From a virus: a stretch of DNA of 35,928 nt. Location: the IMG/VR virus record IMGVR_UViG_3300025842_000306; one strand, given 5' to 3'. Below the pieces are notes generated by a model. The model was not told the DNA's origin and did not search any database. It was given only the letters and a program-made list of their open reading frames with translations. The translations under genes and the position numbers were made by a program. The stretch's first letter is position 1. Each line of letters starts with the position of its first letter. Shown here piece by piece: positions 3,054 to 35,928 of this stretch.

Positions 3054-3473
3054 TTATTCCCCTTTTGATAAAAATCTACACAACTCACCCAACCGCGCCG
3101 GGCTGTACATCTCTGCTGCTGGGATGCCTATCGCTTCGGCGCACCATTCGGAGCAGAAATACTTGCTACCGTTTCGCCCGCCTCGGTTGAAGAGCTGGCC
3201 GCGAAACAGGCCGAGCCAGTCGTATGCGCGGCCTTTAGTCTGCTCGAAGAATGCCAGCACCTGCGCGACATCTGCCCAGAGCAGATCGATCACATCCCAA
3301 TTGCCGTTGGTCAGGTCGATCTGCTTGGCGCGCACGCCGCTATCCATCAGGCTCGCCGAGAGGCACACGCCGCATACCACCAGCTCGCAATGCGAATAGA
3401 TCGAGCCCGTCCACCAGCGCGTGATGCGGTTGCCCAGCTTCCCGCGGCCTTTGTAGAGGGCGAGCTGGACCAT
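3054..3473 (-). CDS. Permuted papain-like (NlpC/P60, YaeF/YiiX-type) putative cell-wall amidase
   Basis: His (SIYSHCELVV) precedes Cys (KYFCSEWCAEA), as in permuted NlpC/P60 enzymes. TAATG overlap with the upstream gene. Confidence 0.5.
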   Translation of the reverse strand: MVQLALYKGRGKLGNRITRWWTGSIYSHCELVVCGVCLSASLMDSGVRAKQIDLTNGNWDVIDLLWADVAQVLAFFEQTKGRAYDWLGLFRGQLFNRGGRNGSKYFCSEWCAEAIGIPAAEMYSPARLGELCRFLSKGE

Positions 3474-4021
3474 TACAGCCCCAGCGAGGTGCGCACCTGG
3501 GCGATGAATACGCGCCACGCGGCCACCGCCGCATCCAGCTCGGCTTGCGTGGTTGCAGCACGCATGGTTGATTGCGCGGTAAAGCGGGTGGAGCGCATCG
3601 CCAGCACCGCCGCACGCAGGCCATTCGCGCGGGCGATGATGAGGTCGGCGGATTGCTGGTCGGTGATGCCTGCGGTGGCCGCGTAGTCCGCCACATAGGG
3701 CGATGCCGTGCCGGTGTAGCCCGCCGCCTGAAATGCCAGGGCGGCTTGTTCGGCCTGCTCGTATTCCGGTGCGCGGCCGCCGATGGCGGCGGCATAGATG
3801 GCGTCCACATCGGCGTAGGTTTTATTGATAGCGGAGGTGCGAGCATCCTCCTGTGGAGGCTGTTCAGCGGGCGTCACAACGACCCATGCTCCGTCTTTCC
3901 AAAAGCACCCCTCTATAGTGGGGTTGTATTCTGGCACGGCGAATCCCGCCCTCAGCATCCAGTCCGCTGGGGTGTCGGTTGGGATGTGCTCAAGTGTGTC
4001 CGGATGGTATGCGTCTCTCAT
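3473..4021 (-). CDS. Hypothetical protein, tail-fibre assembly/chaperone-like (182 aa)
   Basis: AGGAG 7 nt upstream of the ATG at 4021. ATGA overlap with the RT stop. The function is inferred mainly from its position after the fibre/DGR genes. Confidence 0.4.
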   Translation of the reverse strand: MRDAYHPDTLEHIPTDTPADWMLRAGFAVPEYNPTIEGCFWKDGAWVVVTPAEQPPQEDARTSAINKTYADVDAIYAAAIGGRAPEYEQAEQAALAFQAAGYTGTASPYVADYAATAGITDQQSADLIIARANGLRAAVLAMRSTRFTAQSTMRAATTQAELDAAVAAWRVFIAQVRTSLGL

Positions 4022-4986
4022 GCTGTGACTCCTATTTTGTTGAGAAGGTTGTATGAATCCGCCCACTGGGCGTGGCCGCGCCAGGATGCGATAAAGCGGC
4101 CAAGCGATAGCTCATCGCCGCGCGCTCGGAATTTGAATATCTTGCGTTTGGCTGCAACCACCGATTGTTTTCGCAGCAGCTTATGCGTCGGCCAGATGCG
4201 ATAGCCAAGCCAGTCCAGCCCTTGCGTGATCTTGCCGATGCTCCACTTTGAGAAGCGCAGGCCGAGCTGTACATCGGAGAACCACTTCAAGCCTTGCTGC
4301 AACACGGCCAACGCCTCGCGGCTGTGAGCGAAAACAACCGTGTCGTCCATGTAGCGCAGCCAAGCCTTGATGCGCAGGGTATGCGTCAGATAGCGGTCGA
4401 GCACATGGCCGTAGACGTTGGCGAAGAGCTGACTGGTGAGGTTTCCGATGGGCAGGCCGCGCCCCGTCTCGGGCAGAAAGGTGGTTATCAGTTCCAGCGT
4501 GGCCGTGCAGCTCACCTTGCGCTTGATCTCGCCATACAGAACCACGCGATCGATGCTGGCGAAATACTTGGAGAAGTCCATCTTGAGCCAGTGCGTGTAT
4601 CCCCGTCGCATAATGGCCTGCGCCTCGATGGCAGCGGTGTGCGTTCCGCGCCCTTTGCGGCAGGCGTAGCTGTTGGGCAGGAAGGTGCGGTCAAATATCG
4701 GCTCGATGACTGCACACAGGGCGTGCTGCACCACGCGGTCGCCGAACGGCAGCGCCGAAATCTCTCGCCGTTTTGGCTCGTTCACAAAAAACAGCGTCGG
4801 CTCAGATGGGCAATAGGTTCCGTTCTTCAGCGCCTCAGAGAGTGCGCGCAGGTTCGCCGCCAGATGCTGCTTGAATTGCAGATGGCCACAGCTATAGCGC
4901 TTGCCCTTCGCTGCCTTCTCGTAGGCGCGATACAGGTTCGGCATGCTAGCGATCTTGCCGATCAGGTTCTTGTGCTTCTTACCCAT
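4018..4986 (-). CDS. DGR-type reverse transcriptase (322 aa)
   Basis: RT motifs are present, including LPIGNLTSQLFANVY (the DGR-typical xGNxxSQ motif) and YMDD. Size and position next to a TR match DGR RTs. Confidence 0.9.
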   Translation of the reverse strand: MGKKHKNLIGKIASMPNLYRAYEKAAKGKRYSCGHLQFKQHLAANLRALSEALKNGTYCPSEPTLFFVNEPKRREISALPFGDRVVQHALCAVIEPIFDRTFLPNSYACRKGRGTHTAAIEAQAIMRRGYTHWLKMDFSKYFASIDRVVLYGEIKRKVSCTATLELITTFLPETGRGLPIGNLTSQLFANVYGHVLDRYLTHTLRIKAWLRYMDDTVVFAHSREALAVLQQGLKWFSDVQLGLRFSKWSIGKITQGLDWLGYRIWPTHKLLRKQSVVAAKRKIFKFRARGDELSLGRFIASWRGHAQWADSYNLLNKIGVTA

Positions 4987-5152
4987 GCTGCCCTCTATGG
5001 TTGTTCAGTTGCAAGTGCGTCTTTCGAGGCTTCCTACTCGACGTTCCCTTGACCGCGTAATGTGTTCGCCGAAGCGGGATGGCGTGGCTGACCATAAAAA
5101 CTGCATGATCTGCATCGGCGGCCTTAACCATCCGAAGCGGGTGAAACTTATC

Positions 5153-5256
5153 GTCACAGGCGGCACGCAACCCAATGTTCCAGTTCGAGTTCCACGGGTA
5201 GTTGTTCCAATTGGAAGCCCGCGAACCGGAGTTCGCGCCGTTCGTGCGCGTGCCGC
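5153..5256 (-). repeat. DGR template repeat (TR), non-coding
   Basis: 104 nt align without gaps to 5673-5776. Eight mismatches, all at plus-strand T, which is A on the transcribed minus strand. The boundary could extend to 5260. Confidence 0.9.
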
Positions 5257-5258
5257 TT

Positions 5259-5639
5259 TTATCCACGTTCACCCCTTGCGGCTCTGGCCTTAATCCAAGC
5301 GCCGAGCATCTTTCCGGTTTCAGCGAGGTGGATACTTGCCACCTCGGCCTGATGCCGACTGATCAACTTGCGCTTGCCGTCCGCCAAAAACCGCACCATG
5401 TATCTCAGATCGGATAAGCCTGCATCAGCCAGATACAGCTTAGAGACTTGTCCAGACTTGCCCGCCTGAGAAAACATTCCTACTTGCTCAAACATCGCGC
5501 CAATGAATCGATCACGTGCCACGTGATGTGTGCGGCGGATGTTGAGCACAATCGGATACATATAATTGATGAAGCCCTCGAAGCGCTCGACGATGGCGAG
5601 CTGCCTCTGGCTGGCGAATTCATCACTTAAAGTCTCCAC
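5259..5639 (-). CDS. avd: DGR accessory variability determinant (Avd-like, 126 aa)
   Basis: A small basic helical protein between the target gene and the TR. GTG start at 5639. Size and position match bAvd. Confidence 0.75.
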   Translation of the reverse strand: METLSDEFASQRQLAIVERFEGFINYMYPIVLNIRRTHHVARDRFIGAMFEQVGMFSQAGKSGQVSKLYLADAGLSDLRYMVRFLADGKRKLISRHQAEVASIHLAETGKMLGAWIKARAARGERG

Positions 5640-5654
5640 GGTCGCTTTCGCTCC

Positions 5655-6965
5655 CTATACAGATTGCAAGTGGTCACAGGCGGCACGCAACCCAAGGCTC
5701 CAGTCCGAGTACCACGGGTAGTTGGCCCAATTGGAAGCCCGCGAACCGGAGCCCGCGCCGTTCGTGCGCGTGCCGCCTAGCAGCACCCGCGCCAGACCGT
5801 ATGTGCCGAAGGTGTAAGTCTCGCCGCGCTGCGAACCTGCTGCACCTGTATTGCCGTTGACTTGCTTCCATGACCCTGCTGGGCTGGCCGCTTCGCGGTA
5901 GAAATTGGAGTCTTGACCCCATACCCAATGGTGGCCTGATGCCTGCTCGATACCGTACTTGCTGGTGTAGCCTGCATTGCGCTGCGTGGTCGGGTAGGTC
6001 GCGGCAGTGGCGTCGATGGACTGATTTTCGGTCACGCCATAAGCGGCCTCTACAAACTCGCTCTCCCACATCAGGCGCTTCTTATTAGCTCTTGCAAGCT
6101 CGTTCGCCACCCACCAGTTCAGCGATGGGTAGGTAGTCACGCCGTTGCCGCCAAACGCGGCCGGAATCTTCGGCAAGACGGTGTGCGACGCGATGTTCGT
6201 GCCTGATTTGCTGGTGCCGTTAGTGGCGGTATCGGTTGAGCACAGGTAGATGTCCACCCATACCTGCCCGCCCACCAAAGCCATACCGCGCGGGTCGGAT
6301 GCCGCTGGGCGGAACTTTAAGTCCCAGATGGAATACTTGTTGATACCAGCGATGTCATCTACATCGCCCTGCACCCATATCTTGCCGTTGCCCGTGGTGG
6401 CGAACGAGCCGCCTGCCACCGTCGTGCCCGCAGCGACTAGGCCGTAGTGAAAGCCGCCGATCTTGCGCCAATTGCCCGCGCCTGGCGCATTGACGAAATC
6501 GGTTGTGGCTTGAATCGTTGCATCGTCCTTCACCCAGATGGCGTAATCCGTGCCGCCTGTGAGGGCTGGCATGGTGACGGGTGTATTCGATGTGTAGGAT
6601 ACAACAGTGCCAACCACCTCCACCTTTGTTCCGGCCTTGATCGAAAGTGTATCCGCAGCTGTTTTGGCGAAGGCGGGGTTTAGGTGGTCTGTTTTATAAT
6701 ATAAACCAGCGGAGCTTATTTGAGTTGATAGCTCTGCCGCGATCACGTCGCCCATCTCTTCCCAGGCATCGTTCGCCATGTTGCGCCGCCATCGCGTGCC
6801 GTCGGTCAGCGTCACTTCCATACCGGCGACGAGGTTGGTGGCGGGCAGTGATGCGCCGCTGAATTTGCTTTGCAACGCAAGCAGCGCTGCCTTGGTTATT
6901 GTCCCAAGCCCAGCAGGCGTCGTAACGGCTGTATCTATCGTGTTGGTATCCCATATCTGTGACAT
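5655..6965 (-). CDS. Tail fibre / receptor-binding protein, DGR target (Mtd-like, C-terminal C-type-lectin-type VR)
   Basis: 436 aa. AGGAGG RBS directly after the J-like stop. The C-terminal VR matches the TR. The WxxYPW...GLR.ACD pattern is typical of CLec-fold DGR targets. Confidence 0.85.
   Translation of the reverse strand: MSQIWDTNTIDTAVTTPAGLGTITKAALLALQSKFSGASLPATNLVAGMEVTLTDGTRWRRNMANDAWEEMGDVIAAELSTQISSAGLYYKTDHLNPAFAKTAADTLSIKAGTKVEVVGTVVSYTSNTPVTMPALTGGTDYAIWVKDDATIQATTDFVNAPGAGNWRKIGGFHYGLVAAGTTVAGGSFATTGNGKIWVQGDVDDIAGINKYSIWDLKFRPAASDPRGMALVGGQVWVDIYLCSTDTATNGTSKSGTNIASHTVLPKIPAAFGGNGVTTYPSLNWWVANELARANKKRLMWESEFVEAAYGVTENQSIDATAATYPTTQRNAGYTSKYGIEQASGHHWVWGQDSNFYREAASPAGSWKQVNGNTGAAGSQRGETYTFGTYGLARVLLGGTRTNGAGSGSRASNWANYPWYSDWSLGLRAACDHLQSV
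5673..5776 (-). repeat. DGR variable repeat (VR), encoding the last ~40 codons of the target gene
   Basis: Counterpart of the TR. It encodes ...GTRTNGAGSGSRASNWANYPWYSDWSLGLRAACD, followed by HLQSV and the stop. Confidence 0.9.
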
Positions 6966-6974
6966 TTTTCCTCC

Positions 6975-9900
6975 TTAATATCCAAAAACTTCCACGTCCA
7001 CCATGCCAGCTTTGGCAGCCAGCACATCGTCGTAGACATCGATATCCACGCCGTTTATGGTTTTGTTTGAAATGGTGAAGCGGTCGCCTGCGAGCCCATT
7101 CAGTAGATTGACTTTTATGGTATTGACTGCAATGAGCGGCGGGTCAAAAGCCAGCGACAGGCCGCCAGATGGCACGATTTTGTTTGCGAAGCGCAATACT
7201 TTGTCCGGCACATCGATAGTCACAATGAAATGATCGAGTTTTATCTGATAGCCCGGTTGAGCAACAAAACTGGCGCGCAATTTGTAATGACGTAGCGTAC
7301 GCAGGCCTGCCGCGAAGGGCTGCCATCCAGTCCAGGTGATTCCATCGATCGAGGTGTTAATCTCGTATAAAGATGCCACCACGCCGACCGGCCCTTCAAG
7401 CGTCCAATTGTTAGAATAATTAATAAGCGGCAGCACCAACGAATCCAGCGATTGGCCAAGCGTTAAGATAAATATCTTCGGCAATATAAATAGATTGCAA
7501 TTAAGCACCCCCCCAATGTCATGCGGGTCGGTGATGTAGCTGCCCGACGAGATGATCCCGCCTTCGCTCATAAGGCTGCTCGGATAGGTATCGAGAGAAA
7601 GAGGTAGGTCGTCCAGCACATTGGAGTAACCCAGCGTCAGCGCCGCCCCATCAATCACCATATCAGTCAGCGTGCCGCCCCATCCATAGGTGGCGTCGTC
7701 GTCGGTCAGCACCACGTTGATGTTGCTGTTCGCGGCGATGATGCTTTGTGCGGCCGTGGTTGAGTAATTCGGCACAGGGGCGACGGTGTCGAATGCCTTA
7801 ATAAGGTATGTGCCGCCTTGTGGAGAGCGGATGGACAGCGCGGTGCGCGGGGTGTTGCCGACCGCTACGGCAGTGTCCCAGCTGCTCCCCAAGCGGATCT
7901 CGTAACCCGCCACGTCCAGCTCATCATTACCGTGCCAGCTGAAGTACAAATCGCTTCCGTTGCGCGTAGCCGTAAAACCTTTCACAGTCTGCGGCGGCGC
8001 TAGCTTGCCGGTGACTGTATGGTTGATGTATTGCCAAATAGATGACGGCGAGACGCCGAGGTTGGAATAGGGTTTGAGCGTTAAGGCGTAAGCCTGCCCG
8101 CTGACAACGCGCTCGCGCGTGAAGGTACCACTGGTCGATGAGCCTATTAATGTGCCGCCCTCGACTACATCAACCCGCTCCGTATTGATGGTGTCGAAAA
8201 TGATGTCCAGGTTCACCTCGATGTTGCCGCCCGCGGCCAGCACCATCTGCTCTTCGACGGCGAAGCGGGTGATGCGCGGCAGCGGCGCGGCCGCCGATAC
8301 ATCCTGCGTCTCCAGCGCGGGAAGGCCGCTATCCAGCCCGTACAAGCTGGCGTTGTATTCGATGAGCGAGAGTTTGGCGCGCTGATCGCCATCCCGCTGT
8401 ACATCCAGTACTAAAAATTCTTTTATTGCCTTGCCTGTCTCGCCGAGCGCCCACACGTCATAGATCGACGGCGCGGAGGGAAATGCCTCGGAAACATCCA
8501 CCGCCGAGACGGTGCCGGCAGTGGTGGTGATGGTGCGCGTGACCAACGTATCGTCAGCCAGGCGCAGCTTCAGCTCGTAGGCGATGCCTGATTCGAGTGA
8601 CACGCTCTGGTCGAGCTGCAAGCGGGTGGTAGTGCTGCCTGATGCGGCGCGGCCGCCGACCCCCCATCGGGTGATATCGTTCTGCACCCAAATCAAGTCG
8701 CCCGCTGTGCAGGCGAGTGCGTCAATATCCACACCAAGGATGGCAGTGCGCTTGAGCAGCTCGTTGCGCTTGAGTCGGTAAAACGCTTCGCGCCATGCTT
8801 GCGAGGCGCGAGTGATACCGCGCAGGCCGATCTGTATGCGCTGGGCAGCGGTTTCGCTAATGGCGGCGTTAACCACGGTCAGTGTGTCGCGCGCGTAATC
8901 CTGCGCGGCGTTCGTGTATCCAACTTCGATGCTGGCGGCGCGGTCCTGCATGGGCAAGAAAGTCTCATTGAAGCTGTTGACGTTTGTGTTCCCGACTGTA
9001 AAAAGCTGCGCGGGTGTCGCGCGCGCATCGTCCACTACAATAAATATTTTAGTGCCACGCATGACGAGCTGCGCGCGGGCGATGGCGCAGACTTCCAGCG
9101 CGGCTTCCCACAGGCTGGTGGCCGTGTCGAACACGCCGTCGAAATAACAGCGCGCCTCGGCGCCACCATGCCCGTCCGTGACTAAGGTGTCGCAGAAATC
9201 CGCCCAATTCATAAAACTGGACAGATCGAGCCGCGAGGGGTCGAGCCCATCGTAGCGCACCACCGCATGGCTGTTGTTCAGCACTGGTTGGGTCAGAATG
9301 TCCCAGCAGATCCACGCCGGGTTGCGGCTAAACTGGCTGACCCATGCTGAGCCGTTCCAGACGCGCACGATGGCGCAATCTGCCAAACAACTAAAATTCA
9401 TTGATCCTGATATCTGGTCTGTGGCTAGCGCATCCACCGCCGCTAAAACGGTGCGAGGATATTGGAAGTCGTCGTACATCACTTCGTTTATTTCGGCCAG
9501 ATACAGGTCGTCGCCGTAGCGCGTGTCGGTCTGGTCTGCGCTGAGGTTGGTGCAGCGCACTTTGTAGCGGGTGCCACGGTCGAGATTATCGATGCGCAGC
9601 GTGCGGCGGATGGGTTGCTGGCTTTTCCCCGTAATGGTGATGGAATCGTACACCTCGCTGGTCACTTCGACGTTCCCGGATAGCCAACGCCACCTATATA
9701 TCCCGGACACATCGCCGTCTATATGATCTGTTCGTATCACCGATCCGGCGCTAGCCTCTTGCCAGACAGAAATATTTTCACGGCTAACACGTTTGTATAT
9801 AAAGCGCCCTAGCGACCACCTGCCGGGATATGAGGTGATAACAGAGCGCGCCTCAATCTCTACGAATTGCCAACTGCTGCCACCGTCCGCAGAGATTTCG

Positions 9901-10817
9901 ACCGAGGTGTACACCGACACCGCATCCAGACCGCCCGCATCGTTGGCATACCAAAGCCCGCTCGGACAGACCAACACGATCTCCAGTGCGTTGTAATCGT
10001 CGCCCACGGTGTCGCGCGACACCGGACTGCCGGCGACCACCTTGGAGCCGATGTTTTGGTTCTGCCGGGTGTCGTTGAAGGCGGGGATGATGCTCTGATC
10101 CAGCTCGCCCATGCGGGCAGTGATGGTGACGCCCTGGTAATAGCCGACCGGCTGGTTATTGAGTTTGAAGTCGGACAGCGCGCTGTACGGGCCTTGACCA
10201 AGGTCGACCAACAGATGCGCGATTTGGCTGAAGCCGGTGTCGCCAGTGGATTCAATATATCCGGCAATGATATTTCCGAATAGTTTGTTGCGGCCGTAGG
10301 CGCGATGGATGGCCCCGCCCGGGGTTTGGGTGGTCGCTTGAGACCATGCGTAGGCCTGTGAGACATCGGACGACTGGCGGCCAGGGAGAGAGGGTTTGCT
10401 GGGGGCCAACAAAGCGCCGATAAGCGCAGATCCAAGTATCGAGTAGCCGGCGGTTAGCGCCAGCAGCCCAAAGCTACCTGCACCACCAAACGCACCGCCT
10501 GTCATGATGGTTGTGTATCCGGCTGCGTACGGCGCAAAGGCGATGACCGCAATCGTAAGGATCACACCCAGCGTCTCGCCATCATGCACCGCCGGCATCA
10601 CCACCATCTGCTCACCGGGTCGCAGCGCGCGCGATGCCCATGCGCCCGGCGCGATCATCTCGCCATCGATAGCGACTTGCAGCGCTGAGTGGCAAGGGAA
10701 ATGCGTGGAAATTAATTTTGAAACAGTGACATCGCCCAACAGAGATACCAGCCGTTCGTCGCGCTGGCGGCGGTCAAACGGGTTGCGCACGATGACTAAT
10801 GAGCTTTGTGGAGTCAT
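6975..10817 (-). CDS. Tail tip / host-specificity protein (lambda J-like) fused to an N-terminal lambda I-like module (1280 aa)
   Basis: The N-terminal ~200 aa show a ubiquitin-like start, a Gly/hydrophobic tract, LLAPSKP and AYGRNKLFGNIIAG, resembling lambda gpI. The rest is a long J-like beta-rich protein. ATGA overlap with the K-like gene. Confidence 0.8.
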   Translation of the reverse strand: MTPQSSLVIVRNPFDRRQRDERLVSLLGDVTVSKLISTHFPCHSALQVAIDGEMIAPGAWASRALRPGEQMVVMPAVHDGETLGVILTIAVIAFAPYAAGYTTIMTGGAFGGAGSFGLLALTAGYSILGSALIGALLAPSKPSLPGRQSSDVSQAYAWSQATTQTPGGAIHRAYGRNKLFGNIIAGYIESTGDTGFSQIAHLLVDLGQGPYSALSDFKLNNQPVGYYQGVTITARMGELDQSIIPAFNDTRQNQNIGSKVVAGSPVSRDTVGDDYNALEIVLVCPSGLWYANDAGGLDAVSVYTSVEISADGGSSWQFVEIEARSVITSYPGRWSLGRFIYKRVSRENISVWQEASAGSVIRTDHIDGDVSGIYRWRWLSGNVEVTSEVYDSITITGKSQQPIRRTLRIDNLDRGTRYKVRCTNLSADQTDTRYGDDLYLAEINEVMYDDFQYPRTVLAAVDALATDQISGSMNFSCLADCAIVRVWNGSAWVSQFSRNPAWICWDILTQPVLNNSHAVVRYDGLDPSRLDLSSFMNWADFCDTLVTDGHGGAEARCYFDGVFDTATSLWEAALEVCAIARAQLVMRGTKIFIVVDDARATPAQLFTVGNTNVNSFNETFLPMQDRAASIEVGYTNAAQDYARDTLTVVNAAISETAAQRIQIGLRGITRASQAWREAFYRLKRNELLKRTAILGVDIDALACTAGDLIWVQNDITRWGVGGRAASGSTTTRLQLDQSVSLESGIAYELKLRLADDTLVTRTITTTAGTVSAVDVSEAFPSAPSIYDVWALGETGKAIKEFLVLDVQRDGDQRAKLSLIEYNASLYGLDSGLPALETQDVSAAAPLPRITRFAVEEQMVLAAGGNIEVNLDIIFDTINTERVDVVEGGTLIGSSTSGTFTRERVVSGQAYALTLKPYSNLGVSPSSIWQYINHTVTGKLAPPQTVKGFTATRNGSDLYFSWHGNDELDVAGYEIRLGSSWDTAVAVGNTPRTALSIRSPQGGTYLIKAFDTVAPVPNYSTTAAQSIIAANSNINVVLTDDDATYGWGGTLTDMVIDGAALTLGYSNVLDDLPLSLDTYPSSLMSEGGIISSGSYITDPHDIGGVLNCNLFILPKIFILTLGQSLDSLVLPLINYSNNWTLEGPVGVVASLYEINTSIDGITWTGWQPFAAGLRTLRHYKLRASFVAQPGYQIKLDHFIVTIDVPDKVLRFANKIVPSGGLSLAFDPPLIAVNTIKVNLLNGLAGDRFTISNKTINGVDIDVYDDVLAAKAGMVDVEVFGY

Positions 10818-11203
10818 GTGCGCCGCCCCGTGTAGCGATAAAACCCAGCGATACGCTCCGCCCATTCAGGTGCATCCAGCCGCTGGACGGTAACGCCACG
10901 CCGCGAGCTCGTGTGAACGAAACGCCCACCTTCCAGCACCATGCCGATGTGCGACATCCATGGGCCGATGCGCAACACGACCGCGCAGCCGACCTCTGGT
11001 GTGGCAAGCGGCTGCCATTCTGCGGCAGCAGCGGCGTGGATGTCTGCCTCGCGCTGGGCCAGGTCGTCCGGTGTGGGATGGTTGGGGATGGGTGTGCCGC
11101 GCCGGCGACATAACTCGGCGAACAAACCGAAGCAATCGTACGCCTCAGGGCCGCGCGCACCGGCTTGATATCTAGCAGCCATCAGGTCGTTGAGTTTTAT
11201 CAT
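10814..11203 (-). CDS. Tail assembly NlpC/P60 peptidase (lambda K-like)
   Basis: AYDCFGLF (Cys) ... MSHIGMV (His) ... FVHTS. ATGA overlaps at both ends. Confidence 0.75.
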   Translation of the reverse strand: MIKLNDLMAARYQAGARGPEAYDCFGLFAELCRRRGTPIPNHPTPDDLAQREADIHAAAAAEWQPLATPEVGCAVVLRIGPWMSHIGMVLEGGRFVHTSSRRGVTVQRLDAPEWAERIAGFYRYTGRRT

Positions 11204-20948: not shown

Positions 20949-22906
20949 CACCACCCCTTCACTGAATAACCACTACGTCGTTTTGCCGCAGGTCTCTGCG
21001 GTACAAGTTGTTCTTCTCGTTTGTCTTGATTAATTGGCTCCACCTTCACAATCATTGCATCGCCTTCCAGCGTGACGGCGAGACGCTCCCAATACTTCGG
21101 ATCCGGCCTGCCCGTCCGTCCACGCCCGATGTTGATGTCGCGGTGCTGGCCGATGGCCCAGGCATACACCATCGTGTCGAGCGGTTCGTTACGCTTGAAG
21201 CGCGCGCCGATGCGGGGGATGTAGCGTTTTTTCTCGGGGTCGTACACTTCAGAGAGCAGACCGTCGTAGTAGGTGTCTTCCAGCCTTTGTGGGAAGTTGA
21301 AGGTGCGCTCGGTCTGTTGGCGTTCTCCGTCGGCGGCGAGGTGGGCGAAGATGAAGTCCTTGCAGTGTTCGGTGCCGACGTTCCACACCATGTAGCCGTG
21401 GCGGATGACTTTGCCGGTGCGGGTTTTGGTGGGGCTGCTGCCGCTTTGGGCAATGGCGCGACCGATGCGGTTGGTGGCGCCCTGCACGGAATAGACGGGG
21501 ATGCGCAGGCTGGGGCGCATGACGAAGTTTTTCACCTCTTCAGTGCGGTGTCCCCGGCTGTCTATTCCGGCGGCGCGTATCTTCATTTCTTTGCCGTAGC
21601 TGTTGACCAGCGGGCGGTGCAGGAAGGCTTCCAGTTCGTTCCACACGTCTGCACCGGTGGTGTCGCCCTGTATCTCGGTGAAGTCGATCACCCACAGGCG
21701 CGCGGGGCCGTGTTCTTCGGCGGGTGCGCCCCAGCCCAGCAGGGTGATGGCTAGCCATTTGTCTTGAGTGTCGATGCCGACGGTGAGGGCCAGCACGCCG
21801 GGCGGGATGATGCCTTGCTGGTATTCGCCCGCGCGCGTGGCCAGCTCGTGCGTCTTGAGCTTTTCGGATTGGTCTTCCCACGCTTCGCCGAGGTTTTGGT
21901 TGATGAAGCTCTTGAGCTGCACCGGCTCTTTGTGGATGCGCTTGAAGTGGATCACCAGATCGAGCCAGGACGGGCCGAGGCCGATGGGCGCGTAGAGTGC
22001 GCTGATGTGGTAGCTGCGCACGCGGCGCTCGGGGTGTTCCGGGATCCAGATGCCGCCTTCGAGCATGGCGGGCTTGTGGTGCTCTTCTATGATGCAGCCC
22101 TGCTCGCAGATGTATTCGGCTGCGGTCAGCGTGATGTTGGCTTTGACGTGGCTCCATTGCAGCACCTGCCGCTCGCCGCAATGCGGGCAGGCGACGTGGT
22201 AGCGGCGCTGGTCGCCATCCTCAAAGCCGCGCTCGATCAGCGATGCACCCTTAAGCGTGGGTGTGCTGGCGAACAGCAGCTTGTGGCGCACAAAGGCTTT
22301 CACGCGCGAGCGCGCCAGCTCCACCGGGTCGCCTTCGTCGCCGATCTGCGCGGGGAAGCGGTCGAGATCATCCATCATCAGGCAGCGCACGGACTTTTGC
22401 GCGTAGCTGTTGGGCGAGTTGCCGCCGGCGAGGAACAGGATGCCGCCTGGGAAGTCGATCAGTTCTTTGCTGTGTGCCGCATCGCGGCTGCGCAGCCCGC
22501 CCAGCATGTCGCGGATGCACGGCGTATCGGTCAGCAGCGGGTTGAGCTTCTGCACCTTCCAGGTGTCGCGCGCTTCCAGCGTCGGCATGAGCACCATCGC
22601 AGGGCCCGGCGCGTAGTCCATGGTGTAGCCCAGCCAGTTCACCGACATCTCGGTGACGCCCACCTGCGACGACTTCATGATCCACACCTCGCGCACGGAC
22701 GAGTGCAACGACAGGCAATCCATGATCTCGCGCAGCATCGGGTTGCGCGCCGTGCGCCAGCGCCCCACCTCACCACTGCCCTTGCTCGACAACACGCGAT
22801 GGTTGTCCGCCCACTGCGACACCGTGAGCCGACCGCGCGGGCGCACTGCGCGGGCGGCAGCGGCGGACATGACTTGCATTGTGGATTGGGTTAGGGGGGG
22901 GTTCAT
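20948..22906 (-). CDS. terL: Terminase large subunit (lambda gpA family)
   Basis: ...LTVSQWADNHRVLSSKGSGEVGRWRTARNPMLREIMD...SSQVGVTE is typical of Terminase_GpA. The ATG at 22906 forms an ATGA overlap with the upstream gene. Confidence 0.9.
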   Translation of the reverse strand: MNPPLTQSTMQVMSAAAARAVRPRGRLTVSQWADNHRVLSSKGSGEVGRWRTARNPMLREIMDCLSLHSSVREVWIMKSSQVGVTEMSVNWLGYTMDYAPGPAMVLMPTLEARDTWKVQKLNPLLTDTPCIRDMLGGLRSRDAAHSKELIDFPGGILFLAGGNSPNSYAQKSVRCLMMDDLDRFPAQIGDEGDPVELARSRVKAFVRHKLLFASTPTLKGASLIERGFEDGDQRRYHVACPHCGERQVLQWSHVKANITLTAAEYICEQGCIIEEHHKPAMLEGGIWIPEHPERRVRSYHISALYAPIGLGPSWLDLVIHFKRIHKEPVQLKSFINQNLGEAWEDQSEKLKTHELATRAGEYQQGIIPPGVLALTVGIDTQDKWLAITLLGWGAPAEEHGPARLWVIDFTEIQGDTTGADVWNELEAFLHRPLVNSYGKEMKIRAAGIDSRGHRTEEVKNFVMRPSLRIPVYSVQGATNRIGRAIAQSGSSPTKTRTGKVIRHGYMVWNVGTEHCKDFIFAHLAADGERQQTERTFNFPQRLEDTYYDGLLSEVYDPEKKRYIPRIGARFKRNEPLDTMVYAWAIGQHRDINIGRGRTGRPDPKYWERLAVTLEGDAMIVKVEPINQDKREEQLVPQRPAAKRRSGYSVKGW

Positions 22907-23751
22907 TCGCACAGCCCGAACTTAGATTCGCAGCTCGGCCTTTCTTCCACGATCTTGATAAAGTCCTGTTGGCGACCACCGCGCGCAGTCGTGCACCATT
23001 CCAGCACATCATCCATAGTGTTGATCGCCATTCCAGGAACCATTGGCGCGAAATATGTGCGCCCGGTGTTGCGCTCATAGGCGCGTATCTTTTGGATTTC
23101 TTCGGGAAAGCGTTGCGACCAAAGCAGGATGTCTCCCTTCCCGCTATTGATGCACGGAGCGCAACCAACTCGACCAAACCCCAGCTTGTAGAGTGGGTTG
23201 TATTCCTCGCCGCGCGCTGTCACGTACTCGAAACACATCTTCTTGCTCCAGTCGGCCAGCGGATGGTTTACATAGCAATCAAAGAACTTATCGAACTCGC
23301 GGAAAGGCGTGTTTTTTCTGGCATCCGATTCGTCTCGGCGCAGCCCGGTGTATCTCTCGTAGTCGTCAGATACATTCTCATCAACCCAACGGCGAAGCGG
23401 ATTCAGTTTCAATATCTCAGTGCAGAATTGAGCCTTGCGTGATGGAGCTCTACCCTTGACCTTCATCATTCCCTCGAAGGTCAGTTCGTCTGTGCTGTTG
23501 AACCCCCTCGTCTCTGCAAACCGCTCCGTTTTCCAGAGATCGGCATAAGTGCCCATTACCTGTACCACAGGGAATACGTTTTCCGAATACCAGTTGATGA
23601 ACGCTTCGGTTATCGGGCTTTCGTTCTTCCCTGCCTTTGAGTTGAGCAGAATGATCTCGTCGCCCGGGTGCCGGTTTCGCACATGCAGTGCAGCCGCTTG
23701 CGAATCAATTCCCCCGGAAAAACCAACAATGCGGATCACGCTTTCCCCCAT
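22903..23751 (-). CDS. PP-loop ATP pyrophosphatase / PAPS-reductase-family protein (DndC/IbrA-like fold)
   Basis: The N-terminal IVGFSGGIDSQAAAL is the SGGxDS PP-loop. Cysteine pairs GCAPC and CESKFGLCE follow. An alternative GTG start at 23739 would form a GTGA overlap with TerS. Confidence 0.75.
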   Translation of the reverse strand: MGESVIRIVGFSGGIDSQAAALHVRNRHPGDEIILLNSKAGKNESPITEAFINWYSENVFPVVQVMGTYADLWKTERFAETRGFNSTDELTFEGMMKVKGRAPSRKAQFCTEILKLNPLRRWVDENVSDDYERYTGLRRDESDARKNTPFREFDKFFDCYVNHPLADWSKKMCFEYVTARGEEYNPLYKLGFGRVGCAPCINSGKGDILLWSQRFPEEIQKIRAYERNTGRTYFAPMVPGMAINTMDDVLEWCTTARGGRQQDFIKIVEERPSCESKFGLCE

Positions 23752-24265: not shown

Positions 24266-25642
24266 TCACCCAGGGAAGTGCTTGCCGGTTACCGCATGAA
24301 TCGCGCGCTGTCCGGTGTATTCCTGCCAGCGACGGATGATGACGTCGACGTAGTTCGGCGACAGCTCCGACAGGCGCGCTTTCATTTTTAGGCGCTCCGC
24401 TGCCATGAGCGTTGAACCCGAGCCGCCGAAGCAATCCAGCACGATGTCCCCGCTCTGCGCGCTGTTGCGCAGCATGCGCTCGATCAGCGCGACCGGCTTC
24501 ATGGTTGGATGGACGTCGTTGCGCCTTGGCTTGTCCTCGACGATCACTGAGGTCAGCAGCTCCTCGATTTCCGCCTTGCCCTCCACCACGAATATGCCCC
24601 CCCCCAGGTGCAATTCCCACTTTCCGTCTGCACGCTTGACGAACGGTGAGCCATCGCCCATGTGCTCGATGGTGGTTTTTTTACGCCCTCCGAACCAGCG
24701 GTGCGCGCCGCCAATCTTCCATCCGTACAGGATCGGCTCGTGGATCCACTGGTAATCCGACCGCCCGAGCACTAGCGTGTTCTTGCGCCAGATCACAACG
24801 CCGGACAGCTTGAATCCGTTGTTCAGCATTTCGCGGGTGAAGTTGGAGCGCTCGGTCTCGGCGTGGGCGACGTAGATGGCCGCTCCCGGCTTCATCACAG
24901 TGAAGGCGGCGCGGTAGAAGTCGCCGAGAAACTGTGCAAAGCTGGCGTCATCCATGTCGTCGTTGAGAATGCGCGAGGTGTTTCTCTGCGTGCGTCCGTT
25001 GTCTCCGTTATTCAGGAACTCTGCCTTGTCTCCATAGGCGACGTTGTACGGCGGATCAGTCCAGCAGACGTCTGCCATCTCGCTATCCATCAGCGCGGCC
25101 ATCGCGGTCGGCGTGGTGCAATCCCCGCAGATAAGGCGGTGCATCCCAAGATTCCAGACGTCACCCAGCACGCTGACCGGGTCGGTCACTGGGGGTGGAC
25201 AATCTTCCGGGTCTTTGCCTGACACTTCGTCGGCGATGCCGAGCATGGAATCCAAGTCCTCGTTGCTGAAACCGAGCAAGTCCAGCGCGAATCCATCCTG
25301 CTGCAGCTCCTTGATTTCGGCAGACAGGATGTCGTTATCCCACCCCGCCTGCAGCGCGAGCTGGTTGTCCGCGATCACGTAGGCCTTTTTCTGGGCCTCT
25401 GTCAGCCAATCGACCCGTAGGCATGGTACTGACCCCACCCCGATGCTTTGCGCGGCCAAAACGCGCCCGTGGCCAGCCACAATGCCGCCCTGCCCGTCAA
25501 TCAGCACCGGGTTGGTGAAGCCGAACTCCTGAATGCTGCGCGCGATCTGGGCGATCTGCTCTTTTGAGTGGGTGCGGCTGTTGCGGGCGTAAGGCACAAG
25601 CGCGGTGACGGCCAGCATTTCGATCTTGTCTTGCACTTTCAT
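24266..25642 (-). CDS. ParB-like nuclease domain fused to an N6-adenine/N4-cytosine DNA methyltransferase
   Basis: The ParB-N part reads LVPYARNSRTHSKEQIAQIARSIQEFGFTNPVLID..GIVAGHGRVLAA. The MTase has motif IV TDPPY before motif I LDCFGGSGST (beta-class order). AAGGAG RBS at the ATG at 25642; the longer tracked ORF looks like a spurious extension. Confidence 0.85.
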   Translation of the reverse strand: MKVQDKIEMLAVTALVPYARNSRTHSKEQIAQIARSIQEFGFTNPVLIDGQGGIVAGHGRVLAAQSIGVGSVPCLRVDWLTEAQKKAYVIADNQLALQAGWDNDILSAEIKELQQDGFALDLLGFSNEDLDSMLGIADEVSGKDPEDCPPPVTDPVSVLGDVWNLGMHRLICGDCTTPTAMAALMDSEMADVCWTDPPYNVAYGDKAEFLNNGDNGRTQRNTSRILNDDMDDASFAQFLGDFYRAAFTVMKPGAAIYVAHAETERSNFTREMLNNGFKLSGVVIWRKNTLVLGRSDYQWIHEPILYGWKIGGAHRWFGGRKKTTIEHMGDGSPFVKRADGKWELHLGGGIFVVEGKAEIEELLTSVIVEDKPRRNDVHPTMKPVALIERMLRNSAQSGDIVLDCFGGSGSTLMAAERLKMKARLSELSPNYVDVIIRRWQEYTGQRAIHAVTGKHFPG

Positions 25643-25905
25643 TTGATTCTCCTTTTCGATTCTTGTTCGCGTTCTGCTTTTGTGCGGATGACCATGTCGG
25701 CCAGGCTGATGCTGTTGGTGACGGGTTTGAATGGGGTGCCGACTTCGTGTTCGCCTTCGGTGGCGTGAAACCAGTCTGGGAAGCCTTGCATGCCGAGGCG
25801 GATGCTGTTGTTGATGCTCTCGGTGCCGAAGGCTTCGCGGAGCTGGTCTATCCAGGCGGCGGTGAGCGGCATGGCTTGGCGCATGGGTTTGGTTTTTTCG
25901 GTCAT
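25639..25905 (-). CDS. Hypothetical protein (88 aa)
   Basis: ATGA overlap with the methyltransferase start. The ATG at 25905 lies 5 nt after the last iteron. No SD sequence seen. Confidence 0.5.
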   Translation of the reverse strand: MTEKTKPMRQAMPLTAAWIDQLREAFGTESINNSIRLGMQGFPDWFHATEGEHEVGTPFKPVTNSISLADMVIRTKAEREQESKRRIK

Positions 25906-25910
25906 GATGG

Positions 25911-26169
25911 GTGTTCCGCAAGTGTTCCGCTTGTTCCGCTTCGTTAAAATCGCTGAACACCAATGGCGGCGGGGGTGTTCTGCTTGTTCCGTATGTTCCG
26001 CGAAAAAATGTACGCGTGAGAGAGGTGATTTATTTACTCTGCGGCTTTGTTTATGCGCGCGCGCGCGGGCGCGTTTCCACGGAACAAGCGGAACACAGAG
26101 AACACCCCCGCGCTTATTGGCTTGCGTGGCTTTTGGAGTTACGGAACAAGCGGAACACTTGCGGAACAC
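25911..26169. repeat. Iteron array: about 12 copies of (G)TGTTCCGC in two inverted clusters around an A/T-rich plus alternating-GC core
   Basis: 25911-25938 (gtgttccgcaagtgttccgcttgttccg) is the exact reverse complement of 26142-26169. An inner pair lies at 25971-25992 and 26079-26109. The core holds tgatttatttactc and gcgcgcgcgcgcgggcgcg. Confidence 0.85.
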
Positions 26170-29335: not shown

Positions 29336-29622
29336 GAACCGCCCGCCGAGTTGACCAACTTTGGAAAGCCACACCCTAGACAAACATCGGGGTGCGGATT
29401 ACCCGCAAGGGATGAGGCCAGGGAGTACCTTTTACCTGGTGCACAAGGGCCCGTTGCAACTGTTGCAACGGGCGCGCAACTGTGTGTGCCACCGAGCCGC
29501 TTCTTGTTTCGCAGGGGGATGGGGATTGAAATGGGGGCAACCATGCGGCCAATGCTTGAGTTATGGCTACGCGCTGGGCGCGCTGGCTGCTGCGCTACAT
29601 GTTCGCAGAGGAGGTTGAACAT
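29329..29622 (-). CDS. Possible small ORF (97 aa) filling the CII-like to 28619 gap; doubtful
   Basis: TGATG coupling to the CII-like stop, and it ends 6 nt inside the next gene. However, the composition is odd, GC3 falls in the second half, and it contains a 25-nt palindrome. Confidence 0.25.
   Translation of the reverse strand: MFNLLCEHVAQQPARPARSHNSSIGRMVAPISIPIPLRNKKRLGGTHSCAPVATVATGPCAPGKRYSLASSLAGNPHPDVCLGCGFPKLVNSAGGSC
29449..29473. promoter_or_regulatory. Perfect 12-bp-arm palindrome containing two GTTGCAAC motifs
   Basis: GCCCGTTGCAAC-t-GTTGCAACGGGC. GTTGCAAC is itself palindromic. Confidence 0.5.
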
Positions 29623-30077
29623 CACTGGATTTCTTTGTGGGCGCGATGGGGTGTGTGCTGCACGGTAGAGTTCAACCGGTCAAGCGCCTGGTGCGCATCG
29701 TGTATCTGCTTTGCGATCGCGGCGCGCTCGGTCTCGGTGATCTTGCCGTCTGCCAGCGCCGCCTGAATCTCACGCGACACATCGCCATGCTCTGCATCAG
29801 CTGACAACACAGCCGCCACAATGCTCTCCGCATCCGGCAATTGCTTTCGCTCCAGCATATAGCCGCGCATCTCTGCCAACACAGCCAGGATGCGATCATC
29901 GTCGGTCGCATCCATCATCGCCAACGCCTCGCGTAGATTGAGGTGGAACGATTCCGTAGTCGGGCACACTTTATTGCGCAACACCTGCTCACGAACACCG
30001 ATGCGCCGAGCCAGCGCCGGCAATCCGCCCGGCGCATCATGCGCCGTCTGATGCACTGCAATATCCAATTGATCCAT
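29622..30077 (-). CDS. CII-like phage regulatory protein (CP76-type), N-terminal HTH
   Basis: GGLPALARRIGVREQVLRNKVCP is an HTH, followed by a helical C-terminal half. Position after cro as in lambdoid phages. Confidence 0.5.
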   Translation of the reverse strand: MDQLDIAVHQTAHDAPGGLPALARRIGVREQVLRNKVCPTTESFHLNLREALAMMDATDDDRILAVLAEMRGYMLERKQLPDAESIVAAVLSADAEHGDVSREIQAALADGKITETERAAIAKQIHDAHQALDRLNSTVQHTPHRAHKEIQ

Positions 30078-34974: not shown

Positions 34975-35928
34975 CCAGCTGGGAAGAAGCCGCCCTGCAG
35001 TGGGTCGAAGAACACGCCATCCACAAGGCCAGCTACGAGACCGACCGCGTCCGCTTGATATGGCTCAACGAGAGACTGGCCGACAAGCCGATCACCCACA
35101 TCACCACCGACGCACTGCTCGCCATCCGCAAGGAATTGATGCAGACGCGCGCCGCCTCCACCGCCAACCGCTTCCTCGCCATCGTCTCCGCCGTGCTCAA
35201 CTACGCGCACGCCAAGGGGCTGCTGGCTGGCGTGCCGAAGATACCCTACCTGCCGGAGAACAACGACCGCTTCCTGTGGATCACCCGCGCACAGGCCGAC
35301 CGCTTCACCGCCGCCCTGCCTGATCACCTGTCCGCCATGACCAGACTCGCGCTGTGCACCGGCCTGCGCCGCGCCAACGTCACCGGCCTGATGTGGGAGA
35401 ACATCGACATCGAGCGCAAGATCGCATGGATCTGGCCAGACGAGGCCAAGGCAGGCAAAGCGATACCCGTCCCGCTCAACACAGACGCGATCGCGGTGCT
35501 AAAGGAACGATCCGAGCAAAAAAAGAAACTCAAGAAGATCACCATCGCCGATGCCCGCTATGTTTTTACGTTCCGAGGGAAGAAGATCGAGCGCACCACC
35601 ACCAAGGCGTGGTACACCGCCGCTACAGCCGCCGGCATCGATCCGGCATTTACCTTCCACGGCCTACGCCACACCTGGGCAAGCTGGCACGTAATGAGCG
35701 GGACGCCGCTGACGGTACTGAAGGAACTGGGCGGCTGGGCCAGCCTGGACATGGTGATGAAATACGCCCACCTCGCACCCGGCTACGTGGCCAACTACGC
35801 CGAGAACATCACCAGCGCCGCGCAGGCCCGTGGGTGCAATTCTAGGCACAGCGCCGAGGAAGTTAGCGAGGACTATCGCCAAGACGGCGGGAAACTGGGG
35901 TGGCTGATGGGGCTCGAACCCACGACAA
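34809..35928 (+). CDS. int: Tyrosine integrase; the 3' end is not reached within the window
   Basis: Absent from the ORF track because no stop codon occurs before the window ends. The N-terminus is MSLYKRGRIYWCKW...ETTGTAD. Catalytic-region motifs are TGLRRANVTGLMW, HGLRHTWASWHVMSG and LGGWASLDMVMKYAHL. The ORF reads through the att repeat, antisense to the tRNA. Confidence 0.9.
   Translation, partial: MSLYKRGRIYWCKWTIRKTEIRETTGTADHQAAQEYHDRRRAEIWREQKLGDVRIASWEEAALQWVEEHAIHKASYETDRVRLIWLNERLADKPITHITTDALLAIRKELMQTRAASTANRFLAIVSAVLNYAHAKGLLAGVPKIPYLPENNDRFLWITRAQADRFTAALPDHLSAMTRLALCTGLRRANVTGLMWENIDIERKIAWIWPDEAKAGKAIPVPLNTDAIAVLKERSEQKKKLKKITIADARYVFTFRGKKIERTTTKAWYTAATAAGIDPAFTFHGLRHTWASWHVMSGTPLTVLKELGGWASLDMVMKYAHLAPGYVANYAENITSAAQARGCNSRHSAEEVSEDYRQDGGKLGWLMGLEPTT
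35843..35928. repeat. att direct repeat, right copy
   Basis: Matches 1-85 with one extra A (AAA at 35880-35882). Confidence 0.9.
35896..35928 (-). tRNA. tRNA-His, 3' part only in the window (probably the intact copy continuing beyond the window)
   Basis: Same T-arm, acceptor and CCA sequence as 53-85. The left copy is demonstrably truncated, so the functional gene should be this one. The 5' half cannot be seen here. Confidence 0.6.

Follow-up and report, generated by a model that had tools for sequence, protein, structure and literature searches.

IMG/VR virus record IMGVR_UViG_3300025842_000306, here called the window, is a stretch of viral DNA of 35,928 nucleotides (nt) that carries, on its minus strand, a diversity-generating retroelement (DGR) next to the genes for the phage tail tip. 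Read along the minus strand, the locus consists of a TipJ tail-tip gene, an mtd-like target gene with a variable repeat (VR) inside it, a hairpin, avd (an accessory gene), the template repeat (TR), a spacer RNA element (Sp) and a reverse transcriptase (RT) gene. Together these form a complete cassette of the BPP-1 type, in which every open reading frame (ORF) is intact. The parts of the cassette, with positions numbered from the first letter of the window, are as follows.

5655-6965, minus strand: target gene, encoding an Mtd-like receptor-binding tail-fibre protein of 436 amino acids (aa) whose C-terminal C-type-lectin region holds the VR
5673-5776, minus strand: VR, coding for residues 397-431 of the 436 in the target; eight alleles across sibling contigs
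5658-5672, minus strand: last five mtd codons (HLQSV), 3' of the repeat; specific to the VR, with no counterpart after the TR
5640-5655, minus strand: DNA hairpin GGGAGC-GAAA-GCGACC, beginning at the last base of the mtd stop codon
5259-5639, minus strand: avd, accessory variability determinant, 126 aa, with a GTG start
5153-5256, minus strand: TR, starting 3 nt past the avd stop codon and containing 21 adenines
5149-5157, minus strand: predicted start of the complementary DNA (cDNA) and strand of the TR-Sp duplex on the side of the TR and of IMH* (the TR counterpart of the initiation of mutagenic homing sequence, IMH), as read against BPP-1
5011-5138, minus strand: Sp RNA element, Rfam RF03022 Phage_DGR, between the TR and the RT gene; contains GGUCAGC
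4018-4986, minus strand: DGR reverse transcriptase, 322 aa, with a Pfam RVT_1 domain

The signature of the element is its repeat pair. A repeat search of the window aligned TR 5153-5256 with VR 5673-5776 over 104 nt, without gaps, at 92% identity and a spacing of 520 nt, and reported this pair as the sole family of direct repeats. In our own re-alignment, the two copies differed at eight plus-strand positions of the TR (5176, 5178, 5185, 5191, 5205, 5206, 5232 and 5233), at each of which the TR copy reads T on the plus strand and hence A on the coding (minus) strand. The VR of the window has thus changed 8 of the 21 TR adenines and kept all of the other positions (83/83), a pattern with a hypergeometric probability of p = 7.9e-7 if eight mismatches were to land on the 21 adenine sites by chance. 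At the codon level, AAC became GGC, GCC, TAC, GAC and AGC, and ATT became CTT; read in the frame of the VR, the TR holds seven AAC codons and one AAT codon. The initial annotation of this DNA had described the same 104-nt pair, with its offset of 520 nt, its eight adenine-only mismatches, its 8 of 21 changed adenines and its 83 identical remaining positions, and all of these figures were reproduced, as were the codon changes and the seven AAC codons, to which the AAT is an addition. When the window was searched with the TR adenine positions ignored, no third VR copy or remote target was found.

To see how the pair varies in nature, we drew on sibling contigs from JGI, ENA, Logan and IMG/VR. 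The window and seven other metagenomic copies of the same phage present eight VR alleles, which differ pairwise by 4 to 16 nt. The sequence around these alleles hardly changes: the 1189 nt of mtd before the VR, including the CTAG that adjoins it, show 0 to 3 mismatches among siblings with differing VRs, the 416-nt interval between VR and TR is identical wherever a sibling contig contains it, and the TR is identical at 104/104 positions in every sibling that reaches it (L009, L010, L011, L013, L015, L017 and L018). Over the eight alleles, 72 of the 75 differences between VR and TR fall at TR adenines, with A>G in 39 cases, A>T in 22 and A>C in 11. The TR therefore stays invariant at seven sibling loci while the VR varies, as expected of unidirectional transfer from the one to the other.

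Almost every adenine of the template takes part. Twenty of the 21 vary in at least one allele, and the sole unchanged one, at 5154, lies 3' of the predicted initiation base (below) and so should never be copied. Among near-identical 436-aa homologues from the same 90% cluster, differences likewise fall almost only on TR codons that contain an A. The variable residues of the target are 399, 401, 402, 405, 412, 414, 415, 419, 421, 423 and 424. In theory, the 20 adenines, spread over 12 codons, give 4^20 DNA variants and up to 6.6e11 protein variants, with no stop codons possible.

The initial annotation had read the perfect identity outside adenines as a sign of recent or ongoing mutagenic homing and had pointed to VRs of relatives as a check. 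That comparison came out in favour of the idea, with eight alleles on near-identical backbones, an invariant TR and the strong bias to adenines given above, and mutagenic retrohoming is evidently ongoing in nature, as judged from these sequences. The same comparison settles the 5' end of the repeat, which the annotation had called ambiguous because four more TR adenines (5257-5260) face CTAG next to the VR. We rejected an extension of the TR by these four adenines: the CTAG never changes among VR variants, and the boundary at 5256/5776 is therefore real. Related proteins also retain LLGG or a close variant at the residues encoded by the CTAG region upstream of the VR. As a separate observation, the assemblies of L011, L014, L015, L016, L019 and L020 break ~0.1 to 1.2 kb downstream of mtd, inside the cassette or a little beyond it, where a hypervariable repeat would be expected to mislead an assembler.

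The three proteins of the cassette each match their BPP-1 counterparts. The target aligned with the solved Mtd structures (PDB 1yu4/1yu0) with an E value of ~1e-52 over residues 89-433, a match that includes the ending GLRAACDHL, and it scored 1.2e-14 against Pfam mtd_2nd. This homology spans the VR, which sits at the 3' end of the target gene in what is, by sequence similarity, a ligand-binding domain with a C-type-lectin fold. Avd, encoded between the target and the TR as in BPP-1-type elements, reached 95.5 bits against the equivalog model NCBIfam NF033474 DivGenRetAVD (cutoff 80), also matched Pfam bAvd, and resembled PDB 4dwl (E 3.6e-29) and chain B of PDB 8ub7 (E 5.8e-28). The RT aligned over residues 1-315 with bRT of PDB 8ub7 (E 4.2e-102). 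It has both motifs of the DGR clade of RTs ([I/L/V]GxxxSQ and YxDD), retaining R74, IGNLTSQ at 180 and YMDD at 212, and its I180 aligns with bRT I181. Adenine mutagenesis has been tied to R74 and to the isoleucine of the motif, with the SQ motif and YMDD (PMC7826257).

The 166-nt spacer between TR and RT is a recognizable DGR RNA. It matched the Rfam family RF03022, 'Bacteriophage Diversity-Generating Retroelement RNA', over the full model (1-127) at 75.3 bits, against a gathering score of 50 (cmscan). Folding of the whole TR-Sp RNA was no better than that of shuffled sequences (z +0.65); the informative test here is the Rfam covariance model. In BPP-1, the cDNA is primed from the 2'-OH of Sp A56, the first templated base is TR G117, and a short TR-Sp duplex beside the priming site supports the reaction (PMC6182149). 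BPP-1 A56 is the A of GGUCAGC; in an alignment to the BPP-1 Sp, its counterpart in the window is the A at Sp 64, position 5089, which we infer to be the priming adenosine. BPP-1 CUG(117)UG corresponds to CTGTG at 5159-5155, and the predicted first templated base, equivalent to BPP-1 TR G117, is accordingly placed at the G at 5157.

The duplex next to these sites can also be traced. Its TR-side strand, UGAC-GAUA (5156-5149), joins the 3' end of the TR to the four bases that follow, and it pairs at 7 of 8 positions with Sp 57-64, UAUGGUCA (5096-5089). Over related loci the duplex covaries: one pair occurs as U-A, C-G and U-G, and the pair that follows it as A-U and C-G. The cassette thus has both the structured RF03022 spacer and the TR-Sp duplex of BPP-1-type elements, and priming would, by homology with BPP-1, proceed in the same way.

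At their 3' ends, TR and VR share an identical GC-rich sequence, GGGTTGCGTGCCGCCTGTGAC, which is interrupted by T. Past CTGTGAC, the two copies have no residual similarity. In BPP-1, the IMH of the VR is distinguished from the IMH* of the TR (PMC5758913, PMC3240598). The initial annotation had proposed 5673-5693 as the likely IMH region. The shared end there is indeed invariant; it can be only part of an IMH-like end, as the sequence that tells the VR from the TR must lie 3' of 5673 because the similarity of the repeats ends right after GAC. The probable discriminating part of the IMH, by analogy with BPP-1, is the stretch 5658-5672, and we infer that discrimination between donor and recipient rests on these last five mtd codons together with the hairpin. 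A 13-nt exact inverted copy of GTGCCGCCTGTGA, from the conserved 3' end shared by TR and VR, occurs on the plus strand at 6550-6562, inside mtd, and could be a chance match in GC-rich DNA.

Efficient homing in BPP-1 needs a GC-rich hairpin or cruciform with a GRNA loop just after the VR (PMC3240598). The window has a hairpin in the same position and with the same loop as in BPP-1, in a variant form: its stem consists of two G-C pairs, a tandem G.A/A.G and two further G-C pairs, closed by GAAA. It is the counterpart of the BPP-1 target element, an assignment supported by its position, its GAAA loop and covariation. An early reading, drawn from folding, that the BPP-1 hairpin was absent here was rejected when comparative analysis revealed a conserved, covarying hairpin. 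Most Mtd-family loci have a perfect stem of 6-8 bp, varied in sequence, in the same place, with a loop of GAAA, GACA, GCAA or GGAA. Fifteen loci share a GAGC-GNNA-GCGA core with the window, and their outer pairs covary. Across the nine distinct sequences of this subgroup, all cells are paired in the four Watson-Crick pairs, one of which occurs as CG, GC and UA, and none of 500 shuffles reached the observed covariation score. A tandem G.A/A.G that is strictly conserved beside a two-pair GNNA mini-hairpin suggests a recognition element that is specific in sequence or shape; the BPP-1 stem has been described as sequence-independent.

Taken together, these results leave us in little doubt that the element is a complete, currently active BPP-1-type DGR of a siphovirus-like phage of groundwater Proteobacteria. 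Its anatomy, the homology of each of its parts and the natural, A-specific variation of the VR over an invariant TR are direct observations. Some results weigh against this conclusion. Three of the 75 VR differences are not at adenines, namely a C>G in L009, at TR index 6 and directly 3' of a TR adenine, and a C>A and a G>T in L019, at TR indices 25 and 84. Neither a strict (G/C)14 run nor a partly matching IMH/IMH* pair was found at the repeat ends; identical IMH/IMH* pairs occur in some DGRs (Wu et al.). The folding energy of the hairpin is weak (-2.3 kcal/mol, z +0.7) compared with that of BPP-1 (-13.3 kcal/mol, z -3.5). In some assemblies, the same VR allele stands beside a junction that has no DGR. 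Finally, what is known of the element's activity comes entirely from comparing sequences of natural populations. In L019, the target further carries V436I and ends in another stop codon.

BPP-1 biochemistry is our guide to where cDNA synthesis is primed and where it starts, to how homing proceeds and to what role the element plays. By this analogy, a complex of RT and Avd would bind an RNA spanning avd, TR and Sp, in which a short duplex that the TR forms with the spacer through its 3' end would position adenosine 5089 so that its 2'-OH could prime the cDNA. Templating would begin at the TR G at 5157, and the RT would copy the TR faithfully except opposite adenines, where any nucleotide would be possible. 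The mtd-like gene would then have the VR at its 3' end replaced by the cDNA, and homing would probably be guided by the GC-rich 3' end that both repeats share, by the VR-specific sequence past it and by the hairpin with a GNNA loop just after the stop codon. A variable receptor-binding surface may in this way let the phage track changing host receptors.

The alternative that fares best, itself very unlikely, is that the element is a decayed or inactive relic and that the TR/VR pair records past retrohoming. Activity cannot be shown from one genome, and a 1.3-kb deletion in one sibling, L012, has cut away the 3' portion of avd along with the TR, Sp and the RT. A relic would not be expected to keep its ORFs intact, its YMDD and SQ motifs in place and its non-adenine positions identical at 83/83, nor to display eight VR alleles on backbones that are identical over kilobases. 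For such alleles to arise, the VR must have diversified later than any ordinary point mutation of the flanking DNA. The comparison across samples already strongly indicates that new VR alleles arise at A positions.

We give almost no credence to ordinary duplication followed by positive selection or by recombination between strains, with no reverse transcription involved. Tail-fibre tips are classic targets of diversifying selection and mosaic recombination, and there are indeed mosaic junctions directly behind the stop codon of mtd, but these processes would not confine 72 of 75 differences to the A positions of a copy that is non-coding and lies 520 nt off, and they would not keep that TR copy and the flanks invariant. 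They also leave the adjacent Avd, Sp RNA and DGR-type RT unexplained, and the A-specific pattern effectively refutes them (p ~8e-7 in the window alone). Equally implausible is that the VR heterogeneity is an assembly artefact, such as might come from chimeric contigs or the collapse of repeats: breaks in or close to the VR and TR are seen in many contigs, and ENA MEGAHIT contigs join known VR alleles to different downstream contexts, but assembly errors do not yield base-specific substitutions at template adenines, and the same alleles were recovered from independent assemblers and sources (JGI, Logan, ENA and IMG/VR).

Beyond the active BPP-1-type cassette that we favour, the following genes of the window bear on its context.

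6975-10865, minus strand: tail-tip attachment protein J of the TipJ family, encoded directly upstream of the target; matches Pfam FNIII-A_GpJ and Phage-tail_3 and the TipJ-related NCBIfam model
3473-4021, minus strand: tail-fibre-assembly-like ORF, overlapping the RT stop codon (ATGA)
22903-23751, minus strand: PAPS-reductase-domain protein, adjoining the terminase
24266-25963, minus strand: ParB-like domain fused to a DNA methyltransferase
29622-30077, minus strand: CII (CP76)-type regulator

The second of these genes points to a possible history of the cassette. The ORF at 3473-4021, which begins MRDAYHPDTLEHI and directly follows the RT, had no Pfam match; it is labelled a putative tail-fibre assembly protein because its N-terminal motif resembles those of such proteins. 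In L014, L016, L019 (ENA k141), L023 and L025 (IMG/VR), the mtd stop codon is followed directly by a homologue of this ORF (MYTYSPHTGEL...), with no hairpin, avd, TR or RT after mtd. The unit of avd, TR, Sp and RT therefore resembles a 1.65-kb cassette that has gone in between mtd and the tail-fibre-assembly-like gene. Neither L023 nor L025 is among the IMG/VR contigs that bear an RT. L016 has the exact VR allele of the window, and L014 has that of L013; the DGR-less junctions in these two may be bubble-merging by the assembler or may be real. If real, they would imply either frequent loss and gain of the module or diversification supplied in trans within the phage population.

The L012 deletion (JGI 3300025150, Ga0210057_1002748) is of a different form. 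It removes ~1.3 kb, from ~5381 down to ~4080 in window coordinates, with a GCG microhomology at the junction, so that avd lacks its 3' part, the TR and the spacer are gone and hardly any of the RT is left. L013 has the same VR allele as L012 with an intact cassette. Either L012 is a natural variant whose DGR is dead and whose VR is frozen, or the contig is mis-assembled.

The window begins and ends with the same 85 nt (1-85 and 35844-35928) and is probably a circularly closed, complete phage genome of ~35.8 kb or else a terminally redundant one. It also encodes a large terminase, a portal protein, a major head protein, a tape measure protein, a primase, a CII-like regulator and an HNH endonuclease, and the genome is siphovirus-like. 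The CII (CP76)-type regulator suggests that the phage is temperate. A scan of the window found neither tRNA nor tmRNA genes. Relatives of the RT with 86-88% identity occur in metagenome-assembled genomes (MAGs) of Gallionella and Gallionellaceae, one of them inside an 892-kb contig beside a tRNA, and a sibling sample (3300007965) is labelled Aquatic:Groundwater in the catalogue of Roux et al. The host is probably a groundwater proteobacterium of the Gallionellaceae. A literature search for DGRs together with Gallionellaceae found nothing.

The main value of these findings is a correct annotation of the hypervariable receptor-binding protein of this phage; what is known of DGRs in general is unchanged. 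They show that inspection of sequence alone can spot a DGR correctly, and they provide a natural example in which eight VR alleles are set in an otherwise identical phage backbone in groundwater samples, with a mutational footprint that stops where BPP-1 biochemistry predicts the cDNA to start. As a compact relative of BPP-1 with a 104-nt TR, the element may be of use in engineering or comparative biochemistry. What remains of interest is the hairpin in its variant form and the fact that the avd-TR-RT module is apparently present in some co-occurring phages and absent from others; that our readings of the two jointly go beyond the textbook picture is a tentative proposition, which we think possible but rather doubtful.

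The element type, mechanism and lineage are already catalogued and are not novel. The DGR catalogue of Roux et al. 2021 (Nat Commun 12:3076) contains a cluster of 22 members, represented by Meta_3300004107_Ga0065179_10219343 and labelled as viral, Aquatic:Groundwater and Bacteria:Proteobacteria, with target Phage_struct:PC_00010. The supplementary data of that study list Meta_3300007965_Ga0100401_100160919 in this cluster, and the contig of that gene, Ga0100401_1001609, is our locus L011, which agrees with the window at 1189/1189 nt in the part of mtd that precedes the VR, at 416/416 nt in the VR-TR interval and at 104/104 nt in the TR. Gene 19 of this contig is presumably the RT, which is the last gene on it. 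Apart from this catalogue entry, we found no individual description of the phage, its TR/VR pair, its hairpin variant or its VR alleles.

The wider family is large. More than 900 Mtd-like proteins were found at E <= 1e-10, and at least 525 IMG/VR stretches encode relatives; most Mtd-type relatives have a GNNA-loop hairpin right after the stop codon, followed downstream by avd, TR, Sp and RT. Among Mtd relatives (P0002-P0012 and others), the C-terminal Mtd/VR body is 75-90% identical while N-terminal modules are swapped, which indicates modular exchange of the part that attaches to the virion. Targets come as the 436-aa form, as a form of ~530 aa with ~94 extra residues and as one of ~710 aa with a chitin-binding PF02839 domain, and P0003 has an internal duplication. 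In L004, from a Rhodoferax MAG, the RT is 56% identical, a Phage_DGR RNA match is present and the repeats (5526-5627 and 5771-5872) are only 245 nt apart, too close for avd to lie between them, which suggests a different cassette layout. The 43,846-nt record IMGVR_UViG_3300043409_001923 (L028/L139) has an Mtd homologue at its very end and an RT at its very start, suggesting a circular genome whose DGR cassette is split by the point of linearization.

Megablast of 4000-7000 against GenBank phages gave no match, and blastn alone reached Bordetella phages, with only ~68% DNA identity over short stretches. The order of genes is identical to that of the prototype, the BPP-1 DGR (mtd-avd-TR-brt). 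The TRs can be aligned, have AAC codons at equivalent places and follow right after the avd stop codon; both elements have the same Rfam spacer RNA with GGUCAGC, and in both a GAAA-loop hairpin stands directly after the mtd stop codon. The two elements also differ. TR and VR are 104 nt long in the window and 134 nt in BPP-1, with 21 and 23 adenines, respectively. Their similarity is lost abruptly after CTGTGAC in the window, whereas BPP-1 has a 21-bp imperfect IMH/IMH* pair, and the uninterrupted 14-nt G/C run of BPP-1 has no equivalent. The hairpin stem has 2+2 G-C pairs around the tandem G.A rather than the 8 G-C pairs of BPP-1. The target bears no relation to Mtd in its first ~90 residues, and its tail context is a siphovirus-type module with a lambda-like TipJ, whereas BPP-1 is a Rauchvirus.

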